64,000 bases of DNA from the IMG/VR virus record IMGVR_UViG_3300033121_000719, positions 32,001-96,000 of that record. One strand, 5' to 3'. This document shows positions 45,758 to 50,874 of this stretch, piece after piece (position 1 is the stretch's first letter; the number at the start of each line of letters is the position of its first letter). Source of the DNA: a virus. Taxonomy: Duplodnaviria; Caudoviricetes. The position numbers and the translations under genes were made by a program. The notes below the pieces were generated by a model. That model ran no database searches and was not told the origin of the DNA. It saw nothing but the letters and a program-made list of their open reading frames with translations.

Positions 45758-45973
45758 TTATTTCTTGAAAATAAACATACGATCATCATTAAAAATAATA
45801 TCTGCCATATCAGATTCAATAACAAGATTACCTTCAATATTTTTTTTAAAATAACAATAATCTTTTATAGCATCAATAACCTCTGAAACCCCTACAATAT
45901 CTAATAATTGATTTAATGCCTGAGTTCCAGAATAATCAGTATAATTAACTAACACCCTATCTAATTCGCTCAT
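45758..45973 (-). CDS. Hypothetical protein
   Basis: Start and stop within junction sites. Confidence 0.5.
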   Translation of the reverse strand: MSELDRVLVNYTDYSGTQALNQLLDIVGVSEVIDAIKDYCYFKKNIEGNLVIESDMADIIFNDDRMFIFKK

Positions 45974-45995
45974 AAAAAATAAATTTTATGTGGTT

Positions 45996-46901
45996 TTAAT
46001 TATATTTTATATTGATAAAATCCAAAACTTCACCCAATTTTAATTTATTTATACAATAATCCCATAATTTTGGATGAGTTAATTTCATTTTTTGAAATCT
46101 ATTCGGCTCATTCTCTGAATCAACACCAAACATACAAAACATACAGCCTGTTCTATCATAACCCATATCATAAATCTTAGAATATGGTAAATTATATTTA
46201 TGGATATATTCCCATATGTCTTTTTCTGTCCAAAAAGCTAAAGGTGTAGAATTAGGATTATTTTTATCAAACGCATTACAACCATATTTCATATAATTTG
46301 TTTTTCTTCTAAAACTTTCTTCAGTCATTACTCCAATAATTGGTTTTCTATTTGTTTCTTTTTCATATTGCTTCATTGGAAGTTTTTTCAAAATATTACA
46401 ACATATATGTGAAATTTTAAATGGAGCGTCAATTAAAAATTTCCATTTTTCACTTATTTTAAAATTGCCTTTATAACTTCCATTTAATCTTAAATCTTTT
46501 AATTTTTCAGAATTAGTATTTCGACACTCATATAAATATTGACTTTGTGTTTTACTGATAATTGGATATCCATATTGTTCAATTACTTGTTTAAAATTCA
46601 TCTTTGGTTTTACCCAAACAACATTGTCAATAGTTTTTACAAATTCTCTAATTTCTGGATATTCTAATCCTGTATCTGAAAATACAGCAGGAACTAATTT
46701 TGAATCTGGAATAAACGCTCTATTTCTAACTAAATCTAAAAGCACAGTAGAGTCTTTTCCACCAGAAAAAGCAACATAAACTTGACCATTATAATGATTA
46801 TACCATTGTTCTATTTTTTCACAAGACATATCAATCTTGTCTTGCAAAGGTAAAGATAAACGATATTGTAATTCTTCTTTAGTTACCTTGTTATCTACCA
46901 A
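45996..46901 (-). CDS. PAPS reductase family protein
   Basis: AFSGGKDST, DTGLEYPE, CC..LKK.P, PL.FW...DIW.YI, RTGCMFC. Confidence 0.85.
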   Translation of the reverse strand: MVDNKVTKEELQYRLSLPLQDKIDMSCEKIEQWYNHYNGQVYVAFSGGKDSTVLLDLVRNRAFIPDSKLVPAVFSDTGLEYPEIREFVKTIDNVVWVKPKMNFKQVIEQYGYPIISKTQSQYLYECRNTNSEKLKDLRLNGSYKGNFKISEKWKFLIDAPFKISHICCNILKKLPMKQYEKETNRKPIIGVMTEESFRRKTNYMKYGCNAFDKNNPNSTPLAFWTEKDIWEYIHKYNLPYSKIYDMGYDRTGCMFCMFGVDSENEPNRFQKMKLTHPKLWDYCINKLKLGEVLDFINIKYN

Positions 46902-47074
46902 ATACTCCTCCTTAAAAACCCAATAAAAGGTAAATTTTATTTAATTAACCCTTAATTTCTTTCACTTTTTTGTTAGTTCTTCAATTTTCTTATTGTTTTT
47001 ATCAATTGATTCGTCAATTCTTGCTATTATTATCTCTAACTTTATCAATATTTTATTGAGAAAAAGTATCATAA

Positions 47075-47257
47075 TTAGTCACCATCAAAAAACAGTACCT
47101 TTACACAAAAGATGATAAACAATAATACACAACAAATAAGAATAAAAACAAAAATAAAAAATGTAATATATGGAAAAAACCACACTATCAAAGACAACAA
47201 AGATAAACTTCCTAAAACTATTACACTTGATGTAATCCATTTCATCTTTTCGCTCAT
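47075..47257 (-). CDS. Small membrane protein
   Basis: Two hydrophobic segments. Confidence 0.5.
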   Translation of the reverse strand: MSEKMKWITSSVIVLGSLSLLSLIVWFFPYITFFIFVFILICCVLLFIIFCVKVLFFDGD

Positions 47258-47943
47258 AATTTATCCCTCAAATTTCTTAATCTATTCTCAGCTAATTTAA
47301 AAACCTCAGTGTCATACTCAACCCCAACAAAGTCTCTGTCGTTTCTGATACACCATTCTCCAGTTGTTCCTGAACCAAGAAAAGGATCAACCACTAAGTC
47401 TCCAATATCAGTAAAGGGAAACAACAAACGGTCAATAAGCTCTATTGGTTTTTGCCATCTTATACAATGTCCATCTTCTTTTTTTATTCTTTCTTTAGCA
47501 ACCGTAGTCAAACAAATATCTGTTATTACACTTGTGGCAAGTTTAGTCGTTCTTCCACTTTTGTTTAGCCCCTTGCTTTTTGCTGTAGCCTTTTCAACTT
47601 GAACCCTATCAGGATAGAATTTAAATTTTTTGCCTTTACTAAAAATTAGAATATCATCGTGACATTGACGAAACCTATCTTTAGGAAAGTTACCAAACTC
47701 ATTTTTCCAGATTAACCAGTTTACAAAATTAGAATCCTCAAAAGATTGTAAATAACATTTAGCTTCTGCTACACTATGCCAATCTGTCATAATAATAAAA
47801 ATACCATTTTGTTTCAAAAATTTCCAATAGTGGTCAATCCATGAAAAATCTAAGTTCTCGTATATCATGTCAGCAAAAACACAATCAACGTATTGACCAG
47901 TAAAGTGTAGTGTCATATTGTCTATGTTGTAAATATTGTACAT
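47254..47943 (-). CDS. N4/N6 DNA methyltransferase (beta class), atypical catalytic motif
   Basis: FADMIY in place of DPPY; QKP..L; VVDPFLGSGTT. Confidence 0.75.
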   Translation of the reverse strand: MYNIYNIDNMTLHFTGQYVDCVFADMIYENLDFSWIDHYWKFLKQNGIFIIMTDWHSVAEAKCYLQSFEDSNFVNWLIWKNEFGNFPKDRFRQCHDDILIFSKGKKFKFYPDRVQVEKATAKSKGLNKSGRTTKLATSVITDICLTTVAKERIKKEDGHCIRWQKPIELIDRLLFPFTDIGDLVVDPFLGSGTTGEWCIRNDRDFVGVEYDTEVFKLAENRLRNLRDKL

Positions 47944-47969
47944 CTATTTTTCCTTATAAATTCATCATT

Positions 47970-48737: not shown

Positions 48738-48762
48738 AATTCGTCCTTATGAAATTACCGTT

Positions 48763-48963
48763 TTATTCCATTAATTTTGCATCATCAATTAGTTTACATA
48801 AAATTTCTTTAGCAAATTCTTTACCCATTGTTTCAGTATATAATCTAATTTCTGGTTCACCGTATTCGTCACATCCAGAGACAATATCTAATTGCCCAAA
48901 GTAACCTTTGTCATCACTCCAAGATATACTTAATCCGTCTGAAATTGAAATTTGATAACTCAT
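48763..48963 (-). CDS. Hypothetical protein
   Basis: ORF; stop codon within a junction site. Confidence 0.5.
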   Translation of the reverse strand: MSYQISISDGLSISWSDDKGYFGQLDIVSGCDEYGEPEIRLYTETMGKEFAKEILCKLIDDAKLME

Positions 48964-48966
48964 AAT

Positions 48967-49809
48967 TTATTGTATCCCTTTTATATTTTCAGAAATATAT
49001 TTGTAAATTTTCCACATTGGTAAAACGGGAGTACTTGTTTGTAATACTTTCGATATGTCCCAATTTTTAACACAATTATATATTTCTTCTTTTTTGTTTG
49101 CATTATTGATTACAAAAATAATTTCTTTTTTATATAACTCATTTTTATCTAAAATTTGTCCACATTTAGCACCCCATGCACAAATTTTAAAATCATATTG
49201 TTTGTTTTTATAAATTTCAATAGAAGGAGAAGAAGGTGTTGATAAATTATGATCATCATATAAAACAAAATCTTTAAAACTATATCTCTGTTTTTTATTT
49301 AACCCTTTTTCTGGTTTTTTGTAAATATTAAAACAACAATGAATATCTCTATCTGTATAAATATTTTTACCCAAATCTTCGCTATAAATTAAATCAAATT
49401 CATAAAAAATATAAGTATTATTTAATTGACTAATTGGTAAAATAAAAGCAATATAATCTCCCAATTGATAACATTTTTTCATAAATTTTAATGCTTCATT
49501 TAACCTTGCACCAAAAGGAGGATTCCCAATAAATAATCTACCTTCTTTATATGGAAGATTTAACTCTAAGAAATCTTGCTTTATAATGGAATCATCCTCT
49601 GGTTCTAAATCGTAAGCAATACATCTTTTTATTTTTTTGCTAAACGCTCCATTGCCAGCAGAAGGTTCAATGACTTCCGTTATTTTTTCATTCTTTAAAA
49701 CTTCTCTTGCCTTATCAATACAATACTGTGCGGTTTTGTCTGATGTATAATATTTATCAAGATGTAATTTGTTTGAATTTTGTGTCAAATCTCGCTTAAA
49801 TTGTTGCAA
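48967..49809 (-). CDS. N6-adenine DNA methyltransferase (gamma class)
   Basis: DKYYT, IEPSAGNGAF, QDFL, GNPPFG, IAFILP; TTG start after AAGGAGGT. Confidence 0.85.
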   Translation of the reverse strand: MQQFKRDLTQNSNKLHLDKYYTSDKTAQYCIDKAREVLKNEKITEVIEPSAGNGAFSKKIKRCIAYDLEPEDDSIIKQDFLELNLPYKEGRLFIGNPPFGARLNEALKFMKKCYQLGDYIAFILPISQLNNTYIFYEFDLIYSEDLGKNIYTDRDIHCCFNIYKKPEKGLNKKQRYSFKDFVLYDDHNLSTPSSPSIEIYKNKQYDFKICAWGAKCGQILDKNELYKKEIIFVINNANKKEEIYNCVKNWDISKVLQTSTPVLPMWKIYKYISENIKGIQ

Positions 49810-49851
49810 AATACCTCCTTTTTGATTTAAAAACCACATAAAAATGGGATT

Positions 49852-50679
49852 TTATTGGGTTAATTCTATCCTTTTTCTAATTATATCACAATATTCACTA
49901 CTCATTTCGCTTCCAATAAATTTTCTATTGTTTAATTTTGCCATTTTTAAAGTTGTACCACTTCCACAGAATGGATCATAAACAATATCATTTTCATTAG
50001 ACCAAGATAAGATATGATCTTCAGCAAGTTTCTCTGGAAATGTAGCAGGATGTTCAAATGAAAATTTATCTTTAGATGAAACCATATATCCAGAATTATA
50101 AAACCAAACATTAGATTTTGTTTTGTCTAATTTCTGTCCTGAATTTTCAATTCGCTTCAACATTCTATCATCTGAATCTGCTCTGGCAGTTGTCCCATCT
50201 TTGTTTCTGAAAGACTTTGACGCAAACTTTATACTACCTTTTTTAATTTTTTCTATTTCTTTTTCAGATTTAGATTCTTTTAAGGGATTGAATGTATTAA
50301 CATTTCCTTTACTAAATACAAACATAAATTCAAATTGTTGATTATATCTTACATTTGCAGGGAAAGGACAATTATTTTTAGCGTAGATCATTGTATCCCA
50401 AACATTAAATCCAATGGAATTAAAAAATAAACATTGTTTATATGGTACTAATTCTTCCGTCCCATCTTTTGTTTTATCGCCAACCACCCAAACTACTACA
50501 CCACCTTGTTTTGTTACACGAAATAATTCTTTGGCAATAGATTCAAAATCCCATGTATATTTTTTATAATCTCTAAAATCAGAATATGGAGGAGAAGTTA
50601 CAGTTAAGTCGATAAAATTATCTTCCATTTTACGCATTGTTTCTAAACAATCCTCGTTATAAATTGTATTTATTTCCAA
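49852..50679 (-). CDS. N4-cytosine/N6-adenine DNA methyltransferase (beta class)
   Basis: VTSPPY, HPATFPE, YDPFCGSGTT. Confidence 0.9.
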   Translation of the reverse strand: MEINTIYNEDCLETMRKMEDNFIDLTVTSPPYSDFRDYKKYTWDFESIAKELFRVTKQGGVVVWVVGDKTKDGTEELVPYKQCLFFNSIGFNVWDTMIYAKNNCPFPANVRYNQQFEFMFVFSKGNVNTFNPLKESKSEKEIEKIKKGSIKFASKSFRNKDGTTARADSDDRMLKRIENSGQKLDKTKSNVWFYNSGYMVSSKDKFSFEHPATFPEKLAEDHILSWSNENDIVYDPFCGSGTTLKMAKLNNRKFIGSEMSSEYCDIIRKRIELTQ

Positions 50680-50874
50680 TATTTCCTCCTAAATTTTAAA
50701 ACCCAATAAAACTTCACTTTTATCTATTTTTATCTTCATATTCTTCTGGATTATTTCTGTAAAACCACGCTACGATGTTTAATCCAGTTTCAGAATATGG
50801 AAGTTTGAACAATATATCTCTTACGATACTCCACACAAAAATAAAGATAAAATAATTATAGGCTCTTTTTATCA

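Follow-up and report, generated by a model that had tools for sequence, protein, structure and literature searches.

Long arms of a junction palindrome around DNA methylase and PAPS reductase genes of a phage and their counterparts in large AT-rich SPbeta-like phages

Promoter-early stem-loops (PeSLs) of T4-type phages are short conserved repeats found where small, non-essential early genes meet (Arbiol et al. 2010, PMC2839356; Comeau et al. 2014, PMC4122927). The palindrome described here, which recurs in a 64,000-nucleotide stretch of phage DNA (the window), has a similar placement, and both elements recur in diverged relatives and flank genes that vary between related phages. PeSLs, however, contain a strong sigma-70 promoter and a working terminator hairpin, and recombination between them is evidenced by mini-circles, whereas the junction palindrome has no promoter and no stable hairpin, and is marked by a strict 6-N6-6 layout, lineage-specific outer arms and a weak enrichment of breakpoints. 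The stoperators of cluster A mycobacteriophages, dozens of 13-14-bp sites in short gaps that often touch stop or start codons, are read by a phage repressor, which blocks elongation (PMC9283540, PMC3029335); they are asymmetric, bound by a monomer and oriented with transcription, unlike the two-armed palindrome. In SPbeta, a member of the same phage group, the repeated intergenic element SPBRE is read by the master repressor MrpR (YopR), a dead recombinase of tyrosine-recombinase fold which serves as a regulator with many sites (PMC10516654). SPBRE is a 15-bp motif around TATACATATT, present in 9 of 10 target regions, in about ten copies located at promoters; the junction palindrome differs from it in sequence, is separate from it and is not discussed in PMC10516654.

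Recombination sites provide a second comparison. The Xer/dif, loxP and FRT sites have inverted arms of 11-14 bp with A/T-rich, palindromic inner ends around a 6-8 bp spacer, as in the palindrome, and an Xer-like recombinase gene lies nearby in this genome. But a replicon has a single dif or lox site, and partner sites need a common spacer, while here there are 17-55 candidate sites per genome, called from sequence, each with its own spacer. Integron attC arrays share with this locus co-oriented and mostly promoterless small genes, with every junction marked by an imperfect palindrome, and a tyrosine recombinase encoded upstream. They differ in the length of the sites (57-141 bp versus 18-34 bp here), in the folded single-strand structure with extrahelical bases, of which the sites here give no sign, and in the attI site and divergent intI/Pc layout, both absent here. 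The recombinase was rejected as an integron integrase, since it scored 80.9 bits, matched in two pieces, against a model cut-off of 265.

The core of the palindrome, ATAAAA-N6-TTTTAT, is present in 17 exact copies in the 132.8-kb genome, where a second-order Markov model predicts 0.23; every other spacer length yields 0-3 copies. The copies lie mostly at gene junctions and form a graded series from full-length to core-only. No spacer sequence is common to two copies. The full form in this lineage is AAAACC(C/A)(A/C)ATAAAA-N6-TTTTAT(T/G)(G/T)GGTTTT. A run of short-armed sites at small-gene junctions occupies 42890..45761 on the minus strand (cores from 42890, 43321, 43525, 43834, 44041, 44332, 45537 and 45744), with the stop codon TAA within ATAAAA and with TTTTAT adjoining AGGAG or including ATG. 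At the downstream end of this small-gene array, after a G+C-rich terminator hairpin, is a site whose long left arm reads AAAAACCAATAAAA (42312..42337, minus strand).

Each long arm is an outward extension of a core site, and the genes around the arms are on the minus strand, as are the sites listed in this paragraph. Directly 3' of the stop codon of a PAPS-reductase-family gene (45996..46901, 301 aa, TTG start after AGGAGG; Pfam PF01507, E 7.9e-25) lies the site 45972..45997 (core 45972-45989), whose long arm at 45984-45997 reads ttttatgtggtttt or, in gene sense, AAAACCACATAAAA (a left arm, "type G"), the exact reverse complement of 49830-49843. The site upstream of the same gene (46915..46940) has a short outer (left) arm and a long right arm of "type T" at 46915-46928, TTTTATTGGGTTTT in gene sense; as aaaacccaataaaa on the given strand, this arm is found again at 50698-50711. 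Next come an N6/N4 DNA methylase gene (47254..47943, 229 aa; PF01555, E 2.1e-30), with a 55% identical homologue in G001 and a short-armed upstream site (core from 47956), and a 172-aa DNA-methylase-like gene (47970..48488; phrog_799, E 3.4e-29), whose upstream site (48510..48535) has a partly long right arm, TTTTATTAGGTTTC. A 280-aa methylase-like gene (48967..49809; phrog_5172 and phrog_799) likely starts at TTG 49809 after AGGAGG; the ATG at 49839 chosen by the ORF finder falls within an arm of the following site. That site, 49830..49862, is the only one with two long arms: aaaaccacataaaa at 49830-49843, the spacer atggga and ttttattgggtt at 49850-49861, or AACCCAATAAAA-TCCCAT-TTTTATGTGGTTTT in gene sense. 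The stop codon of an N6/N4 ("SPPY") DNA methylase gene (49852..50679, 275 aa, TTG start after AGGAGG; PF01555, E 2.2e-45) lies within the left arm of this site. Upstream of the SPPY methylase gene is the site 50698..50723, with a short outer arm and the long right arm TTTTATTGGGTTTT at 50698-50711.

The arm positions in an earlier sequence-only reading of this DNA were borne out with the exception of one base, the 13th of the second arm of the 49839 site, which is a and not t (position 49862). Two long arms in the window were absent from that reading, 48510-48523 with two mismatches and 42324-42337 with one, and the DNA beyond the window has two more, at 88257 and 89315 in window numbering. 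In gene sense, five long arms are right arms immediately upstream of a ribosome-binding site and the remaining four are left arms at a stop codon or just past it. A search of the window with the 14-mer, allowing up to two mismatches, gave 12 matches versus 4.56 expected, and 1 of 100 shuffles reached 12. Half of these matches (6 of 12) fall within the 4.7 kb of 45984-50711, where 0.34 would be expected (Poisson P = 1.5e-6). The complete 132,783-bp genome has just seven copies of the 12-mer TTTTATNNGGTT.

The same core is present in other phages, with 55 exact copies in G001, 31 in G004, 29 in G020, 23 in G005, 18 each in G006, G015 and G016, and 11 in G003, compared to 0-2 copies of the reversed control pattern; Bacillus phage SPbeta has 13. 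G001, a distant relative, and this phage have 55 of 220 proteins in common, at 24-63% identity; for G015 the number is only about 14. The core is identical in phages that share almost no proteins. The outer arms are lineage-specific (AAACCAC, AACCTA or TCTAG). The consensus of the 55 G001 copies, AAAAC(C/A)(A/C)(A/C)-ATAAAA-N6-TTTTAT-GTGGTTT, is long-armed on each side. Such arms are the norm for the family of large AT-rich SPbeta-like phages and are not specific to cassettes. Exact sites are intergenic or at gene boundaries in 71-100% of cases per genome (151 of 179 pooled), while the genomes are 10-17% non-coding. The curated annotation of SPbeta also places sites at two junctions between divergent genes and at one between convergent genes, which speaks against a pure 3'-end role. 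The full palindrome had a single match in 596 Gb of bacterial and archaeal genomes; it is essentially absent from them and is not a host repeat.

When orthologous sites were compared within two pairs of phages, the core arms were 98.9% identical compared to 92.8% for spacers and 92.6% for flanks, figures subject to ascertainment bias, as sites were picked for an exact match in one of the two phages compared. Of 30 sites inside aligned blocks, 29 were scored as kept, two of these rows being poorly aligned. Complementarity of the outer arms within a site equalled that of shuffled arms (3.31 versus 3.33), revealing no selection for pairing. Folding energies are about -0.7 kcal/mol for core-only sites and just -7 kcal/mol (z -1.8) for the best one, the double-long-arm site. 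A terminator scan found none of the sites, and no Rfam family matched. As judged from these sequence comparisons, the palindrome is a conserved cis-element of intergenic DNA, with a 6+6 core under purifying selection, a 6-bp centre free to drift and an outer-arm consensus that is lineage-specific; there is no selection for pairing between the arms within a site.

Genes for proteins of tyrosine-recombinase fold are present in all eight complete site-bearing phage records. In this phage, an Xer-like recombinase gene (53116..53988, minus strand, 290 aa; phrog_1) with its own sigma-A-type promoter is located 2.4 kb upstream of the island of long-armed sites. Alignment to XerD and XerA revealed the complete catalytic set R-K-H-R-H-Y, and the NCBIfam matches are XerA/XerC/XerD-like, every one below cut-off. 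A second gene (227..1240, plus strand; PF00589), adjoining the tape-measure gene, encodes a homologue of SPbeta YomM (28% identical, E 4e-21) with counterparts in G001, G004 and G015. Enterococcus phage VPE25 also has a YomM-like homologue, but one exact site only in the 45 kb examined. No recombinase orthologue tracks the site across the site-bearing phages, the Xer-like gene being found only in G000 and G001.

On balance we favour, with moderate confidence, the reading that the long arms represent, in its complete form, a junction palindrome common to many large AT-rich SPbeta-like phages, a site of recombinase geometry for a predicted DNA-binding protein. The site would be double-stranded DNA, with one of two protein subunits on each arm of about 14 bp and the 6-bp spacer between them, the geometry of an Xer/Cre-type core site; the conserved core, drifting centre, lineage-specific arms and lack of pairing selection suggest this arrangement. 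The site is most likely read by a phage protein, perhaps one of tyrosine-recombinase fold, because every complete site-bearing genome examined has at least one such gene and MrpR sets a precedent. Sharing of the site by phages with almost no common proteins fits a host factor, or the physics of A4-N6-T4 DNA, equally well. The bound protein may regulate neighbouring genes, insulate them or promote exchange, and we lean towards a regulatory or architectural role. The methylase and PAPS reductase genes may have long arms for two reasons. Their junctions are roomy, mostly 36-60 nt, so that outer arms would not be overwritten by coding sequence or a ribosome-binding site, and at least two of the genes may have arrived recently from other phages with the same element, so that their junction halves would have decayed little. 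The two reasons are compatible, and the present data do not separate them.

The sequence-only reading had proposed instead that long arms face inward on particular cassettes, like terminal inverted repeats of recent insertions. The arms are not the terminal inverted repeats that would bound a self-contained mobile element. In a wider form, in which the sites are tyrosine-recombinase core sites, cassettes move by crossover in the spacer as in integron or lox systems, and long inward arms are half-sites of recent insertions, the proposal has only partial support and appears unlikely. The full site of about 14+6+14 bp that it assumed agrees with the G001 consensus and has the size and layout of an Xer/Cre core, and a catalytically intact recombinase is encoded close by. 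The island methylases do look recently acquired, because in a 5.8-billion-protein database the best outside homologue of the SPPY methylase is 86% identical and the 280-aa methylase has one of 91%, versus none above 59% for the backbone primase-helicase. The arms themselves, however, follow the family-wide consensus of the junction element, and they are missing from 113 homologues of these two genes that lie in unrelated phages. SPPY methylase homologues in two other site-bearing phages adjoin sites; the closest retrievable one, in L392 (76% identical in amino acids, different neighbours), has sites on both sides, but with short arms and differing spacers. The inward-facing pattern is seen in two or three cases, in this genome only, and in G001 and G003 the two arms on either side of a gene are no more alike than arms drawn at random. 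Arm length, expected to mark cassette boundaries, is confounded with junction length: the gap measures 22-119 nt for long arms (at least 36 nt for five of the six) and 12-39 nt for short-armed sites. Breaks in homology between related phages show only a marginal enrichment at sites (odds ratio 1.67, p 0.044, from non-independent data), being present at 27% of junctions with a site versus 18% without, but 73% of site junctions are within unbroken homology and 81% of junction breakpoints are at site-less junctions. A single mosaic breakpoint (G015 95335 / G016 48032) sits precisely where the left arm meets the spacer, while other breakpoints are at either outer edge of a site and not in the spacer. 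Classical tyrosine recombinases do not tolerate differing spacers, and since all spacers differ, one site could not undergo classical two-strand exchange with another. A genome with dozens of active sites would also be at risk of deletions and inversions, and the recombinase is neither an integron integrase nor common to all site-bearing phages.

An RNA-level element, a weak hairpin in polycistronic early mRNA acting in termination or attenuation, RNase processing or stabilization, or stop-to-RBS translational coupling, seems improbable. Stop codons TAA often lie inside the left arm and TTTTAT adjoins the Shine-Dalgarno sequence or includes ATG, two sites are annotated as stem-loops in the SPbeta record, and several G001 and G004 sites are immediately upstream of a TTGACA -35 box, a terminator-like placement; but the folds are weak, conservation is on sequence and not on pairing, without compensation in the outer arms, SPbeta has sites at divergent junctions, and the terminator and Rfam searches were negative. 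Even less credence is given to a small selfish palindromic repeat of REP/MITE type, spread by a transposase, with long arms as the youngest copies. It would account for many intergenic palindromic copies in a graded series, but orthologous copies are stable with cores more conserved than flanks, the core is identical among phages with almost no shared genes, direct reading of the sequence revealed no target-site duplications at the two "cassettes" and a spacer is never common to two copies. A functionless by-product of AT-rich junction grammar (stop TAA with an A-run, Shine-Dalgarno sequence, T-run with ATG) would fit the four or five junctions where the spacer is the Shine-Dalgarno sequence and ATG is within TTTTATG. 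It is effectively refuted by the spacer profile, and we consider it highly implausible: most sites are upstream of the ribosome-binding site, and the same strict spacing is found in eight other phage genomes.

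The palindrome ATAAAA-N6-TTTTAT, hereafter the core, is present in 17 exact copies in the genome of this phage, against 0.23 expected, and other spacer lengths give 0–3 copies. Most exact cores are found at gene junctions between 42.3 and 50.7 kb of the window. The TAA of ATAAAA often serves as the stop codon, and TTTTAT either adjoins an AGGAG ribosome-binding site or includes the ATG; in the latter arrangement the spacer holds the Shine-Dalgarno sequence. IMG/VR was scanned for the core with a long right arm, which returned several contigs with multiple matches, and cores were then counted in whole records. 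Exact cores numbered 55 in phage record G001 (168 kb), 31 in G004 (212 kb), 29 in G020 (217 kb), 23 in G005 (116 kb), 18 each in G006 (140 kb), G015 (154 kb) and G016 (127 kb), and 11 in G003, a 38-kb fragment. A reversed-pattern control gave 0–2 matches in each of the eight records. SPbeta (NC_001884) carries 13 exact cores, with spacer 6 only; three sites only were found in 50 kb of Clostridium phage c-st and none in MT835469. Exact sites are intergenic or at gene boundaries in 71–100% of cases per genome (151 of 179 pooled), in genomes that are 10–17% non-coding, and their position follows that of the stop codon before them more closely than that of the start after them. The curated annotation of SPbeta also places sites at two divergent junctions and one convergent junction, and one site is immediately upstream of the mtbP methylase gene.

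The window covers bases 32001–96000 of a virus record that is complete at 132,783 bp, has direct terminal repeats and contains 32% G+C. The record shows strong ribosome-binding sites of Firmicutes type (AGGAGG), and its replication genes, among them a 1670-aa DnaE-type polymerase, a primase-helicase and a ribonucleotide reductase, are similar to those of SPbeta, c-st and Geobacillus virus E3. Close relatives were not found in phage, IMG/VR or protein collections queried with the integrase, the DNA and the G001 recombinase. G001 is a distant syntenic relative (55 of 220 proteins shared, at 24–63% identity); G002, with which it was compared for gene gain and loss, is an identical fragment of it. 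Only about 14 proteins are common to G015 and this phage. The minus strand carries the genes from approximately 24 kb onward. A DNA-modification island on this strand, made up of a PAPS-reductase family gene (45996–46901) and four methylase-like genes (47254–47943, 47970–48488, 48967–49809 and 49852–50679, the last being the SPPY methylase), lies at the upstream end of a long small-gene array driven by sigma-A-type promoters. The array holds two perfect 12/12 sigma-70-type promoters, TTGACA-16/17-TATAAT (window 44776–44803 and 43176–43204, both minus strand), and an 11/12 promoter with an extended −10 element (54012–54039, minus strand) is found upstream of a gene for a Xer-like recombinase. 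The promoters in the array and before the recombinase gene suggest that this region would be transcribed early by host RNA polymerase.

The sequence-only reading had described longer arms on some of these sites, and their positions were correct except for one base, 49862, which is a and not t. A search for the 14-base arm with up to two mismatches gave 12 matches in the window (4.56 expected), six of them inside 4.7 kb, where 0.34 were expected (P = 1.5e-6); the 12-mer TTTTATNNGGTT has just seven copies genome-wide. With a looser search anchored on the core, nine long arms were identified, each of which prolongs a core outward. Read in gene sense, right arms account for five, located 1–10 nt upstream of the ribosome-binding sites of the PAPS-reductase gene, of three methylase genes and of a small gene past the end of the window, and left arms for four, at a stop codon or directly after it. 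The arms come in two sequence types, TTTTATTGGGTTTT and TTTTATGTGGTTTT. The arm at 45984–45997 is the exact complement of that at 49830–49843, and the second PAPS-reductase arm, 46915–46928, is a direct copy of 50698–50711; the arms are therefore pairable in more than one way. A 14+6+14 layout is present at window 49830–49862 and in the G001 consensus AAAAC(C/A)(A/C)(A/C)-ATAAAA-N6-TTTTAT-GTGGTTT. This consensus bears out the proposed site size, on the scale of loxP or dif; it also means that sites in this lineage ordinarily have long arms, which do not mark particular cassettes. The outer arms vary by lineage, being AAACCAC in G001 and this phage, AACCTA/TGGGT in G003 and TCTAG in G015, G016 and SPbeta. 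In a separate observation, the sites at window 42890 and 43834 (plus-strand coordinates) share the 13-mer AAAACGCTCTTTT on opposite strands with a one-base offset, which may be due to chance or an old inversion.

Selection on the sites was assessed in two pairs of phages of roughly 90–92% identity, G015/G016 and G004/G020. All but one of 30 exact sites within aligned blocks were scored as kept in the partner phage, two of the alignment rows being poor. Identity between partners was 98.9% in core arms, 92.8% in spacers and 92.6% in flanks. This estimate is biased, since sites were chosen for being exact in one partner, yet the changes in arms (4 of 360 positions) are still well under expectation. 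The outer arms show no sign of pairing, with complementarity within G001 sites of 3.31 of 8 positions versus 3.33 after shuffling. The fold energy of core-only sites is about −0.7 kcal/mol and that of the best-folding site, which has two long arms, only −7 kcal/mol (z −1.8); the z-scores of the sites are not significant. No site was reported by the terminator scan and no Rfam family matched. Conserved sequence, a free spacer, fixed spacing, the lack of pairing and the occurrence at divergent junctions together point to a double-stranded DNA site, and from sequence evidence the palindrome looks like one for a two-fold symmetric protein assembly rather than an RNA hairpin. No description of the palindrome was found in the literature searched, including by sequence strings, and the SPbeta review is silent on it. 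This junction palindrome is widespread, under selection and, as far as can be told, previously undescribed. Two of the 13 SPbeta palindromes, at 2628 and 116414, coincide with stem_loop features of the depositors, who thus saw the motif as hairpins and not as a repeated family.

Several types of element were considered for the palindrome. An intrinsic terminator has a U-tract after a stable, G+C-containing hairpin; the absence of the sites from the terminator scan and their weak folds, −0.7 to −7 kcal/mol, reject this assignment. A promoter is rejected as well: the sites lack a −35 box, many of the leaders would be too short, and canonical sigma-A promoters are found elsewhere in the array. 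PeSL-type cassettes carry a sigma-70 promoter and an effective terminator hairpin inside the repeat, whereas the sites here contain neither consensus and fold weakly. The breakpoint counts given below bear on a second trait of such cassettes, namely that genes gained, lost or replaced among close relatives have their ends at the repeats. A host repeat was rejected, the full palindrome having one match in 596 Gb of bacterial and archaeal genomes. Among bacterial species genomes the perfect 30-bp palindrome occurs only in L353 (CAZNUU010000010.1, 3634 bp, labelled as a Candidatus Saccharibacteria MAG), a contig that is probably of phage origin and entered the MAG through binning. An integron combines an integrase bearing the IntI-specific insertion with an array of attC cassettes. 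The Xer-like protein of this phage scores 80.9 bits on TIGR02249, in two stretches, against a cut-off of 265, and its best models are XerA, XerC and XerD, not the integron integrase. The attC sites themselves are 57–141 bp imperfect palindromes with R''/L''/L'/R' boxes that recombine as folded single strands, unlike the 18–34 bp sites built on ATAAAA-N6-TTTTAT, in which pairing is not selected. Core sites of Xer and Cre recombinases consist of inverted arms of 11–14 bp around a 6–8 bp spacer, are cleaved at the arm/spacer boundary and share the spacer between partners. The 14+6+14 palindrome has this geometry; however, its spacers all differ, both in the window and in G001.

Candidate proteins that could read such a site are encoded in this phage. 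The Xer-like recombinase (window 53116–53988) has all catalytic residues, and a YomM-like recombinase-fold protein is encoded at 227–1240. At least one tyrosine-recombinase-fold gene is present in 8 of 8 complete site-bearing records. No recombinase orthologue that tracks the site was found among the phages compared: the Xer-like gene is present in this phage and G001 only, and the YomM-like protein was rejected as the reader given that Enterococcus phage VPE25 has the gene and one exact site only in the 45 kb examined. A host factor may also be among the candidates. A precedent exists in SPbeta, where MrpR, a catalytically dead protein with a tyrosine-recombinase fold, represses the phage through binding to SPBRE, an intergenic element present in repeated copies (PMC10516654). 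This operator, a 15-bp motif at MrpR ChAP-seq targets, does not match the palindrome; 9 of 10 MrpR target upstream regions share the k-mer TATACATAT/ATATGTATA instead, and identity of the two elements was rejected (PMC10516654). A tyrosine-recombinase-fold gene lies beside the tape-measure gene in this phage (window 227–1240, plus strand), G001 (131525–132544), G004 (182823–183644), G015 (40868–41902) and SPbeta (yomM). Its position is fixed across very diverged phages, and it is also found in lytic Enterococcus, Staphylococcus and Lactobacillus siphoviruses.

A different proposal is that phage tyrosine recombinases use the palindromes as functional core sites, so that co-infecting SPbeta-like phages could swap single accessory genes at fixed junctions, the inward-facing, near-consensus arms by recently acquired methylases being donor half-sites. 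We consider this unlikely. Two island genes do appear to be newcomers: homologues of the primase-helicase reach at most 59% identity in a database of 5.8 billion proteins, while the best homologues of the SPPY methylase and the 280-aa methylase (48967–49809) are 86% and 91% identical, which indicates that both genes arrived recently. There was no sign of a shared contig between the 280-aa methylase matches and the 86% SPPY matches among those listed, and the two genes were therefore probably acquired independently. In L392, a site-bearing phage record, a 76% identical SPPY homologue is found in a different context, about 0.9 kb downstream of a polymerase gene, with core sites on both sides, and in L402, another such record, a 70% identical homologue has a core site upstream. 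The arms and spacers of both, however, are unlike those of the window, and no arms lie beside any of 113 IMG/VR homologues of the PAPS reductase and SPPY methylase in other phages, all at most 71% identical and most in unrelated phages. One breakpoint in the G015/G016 mosaic lies precisely at the boundary of left arm and spacer, as exchange would have it, but it is one of about ten site-associated breakpoints, and the others are at either outer edge of the site and not in the spacer. Among junctions with gaps of 15–400 nt, a breakpoint was found in 28 of the 104 where a site is present and in 119 of the 660 where it is absent (odds ratio 1.67 and p = 0.044, the genome pairs being non-independent), which is only weak evidence for the sites as crossover points. 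Since the spacers differ, classical exchange would be blocked. On this proposal unequal spacers would be tolerable, one strand pair only being exchanged, which is the mode of integron and CTX-phage integration. The recombinase is not an integron integrase.

Nor do the arms around one gene behave as a pair. In G001 they match at 3.56 complementary positions versus 3.32 ± 0.32 for random arms, and the quality of flanking arms is uncorrelated (r = 0.08 in G001, near zero or negative in G003). A correlation is seen only in this genome (r = 0.40–0.65, n = 9–25), where it is driven by the two genes, PAPS reductase and SPPY methylase, for which the sequence-only reading had likened the arms to terminal inverted repeats of recent insertions; we find no evidence that they act in this way. 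A transposon or MITE has inverted repeats at both ends, a target-site duplication and the same unit in different contexts. There are no direct repeats around the two putative cassettes, and this, with the armless homologues, the differing arms of L392 and the unmatched arm pairs of G001 and G003, rejects such an element. Arm length is, moreover, confounded with junction length: long arms are in gaps of 22–119 nt (five of six in gaps of at least 36 nt) and short-armed sites in gaps of 12–39 nt, outer arm positions being lost in short gaps because coding sequence or a ribosome-binding site occupies them. The suggestion that recent cassettes bring their own half-sites stands in part: the good preservation of arms near the methylase and PAPS-reductase genes fits recent arrival from site-bearing phages, and roomier junctions fit equally well. 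The most likely mechanism, judged from sequence, is protein binding, in which a protein would recognize the palindrome as a recombinase-type site, and a regulatory or architectural role is favoured over active cassette exchange.

Across a wide range of large phages of Firmicutes, the model phage SPbeta among them, a strictly spaced palindrome occurs in dozens of copies in each genome. If it is a protein-binding site, it would represent an unrecognised layer of control or gene exchange in accessory-gene regions, where anti-restriction methylases and other counter-defence genes are located. The full 34-bp form of the site is new here, as is the association of well-preserved arms with recently arrived genes, subject to the equal fit of roomier junctions. 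The 13 exact copies in SPbeta make the question directly testable in Bacillus subtilis.

Some further features of the region were recorded. The genes for the PAPS reductase, the 280-aa methylase and the SPPY methylase have TTG starts (window 46901, 49809 and 50679, minus strand) 4–5 nt past a perfect AGGAGG; the SPPY homologue of L402 also has a TTG start, and the small genes adjoining the island genes in the window start with ATG. When the DnaE-type polymerase (window 28924–33936, minus strand) is aligned with phage homologues, the alignment breaks into three segments that together account for only about 63% of the protein, a pattern suggestive of an inserted element such as an intein. A tRNA gene (window 52695–52765, minus strand; Rfam RF00005, 61.8 bits) and a Thy1-like ORF as called (52104–52751) overlap at the first codons of the ORF, the true start of which is therefore probably further downstream.
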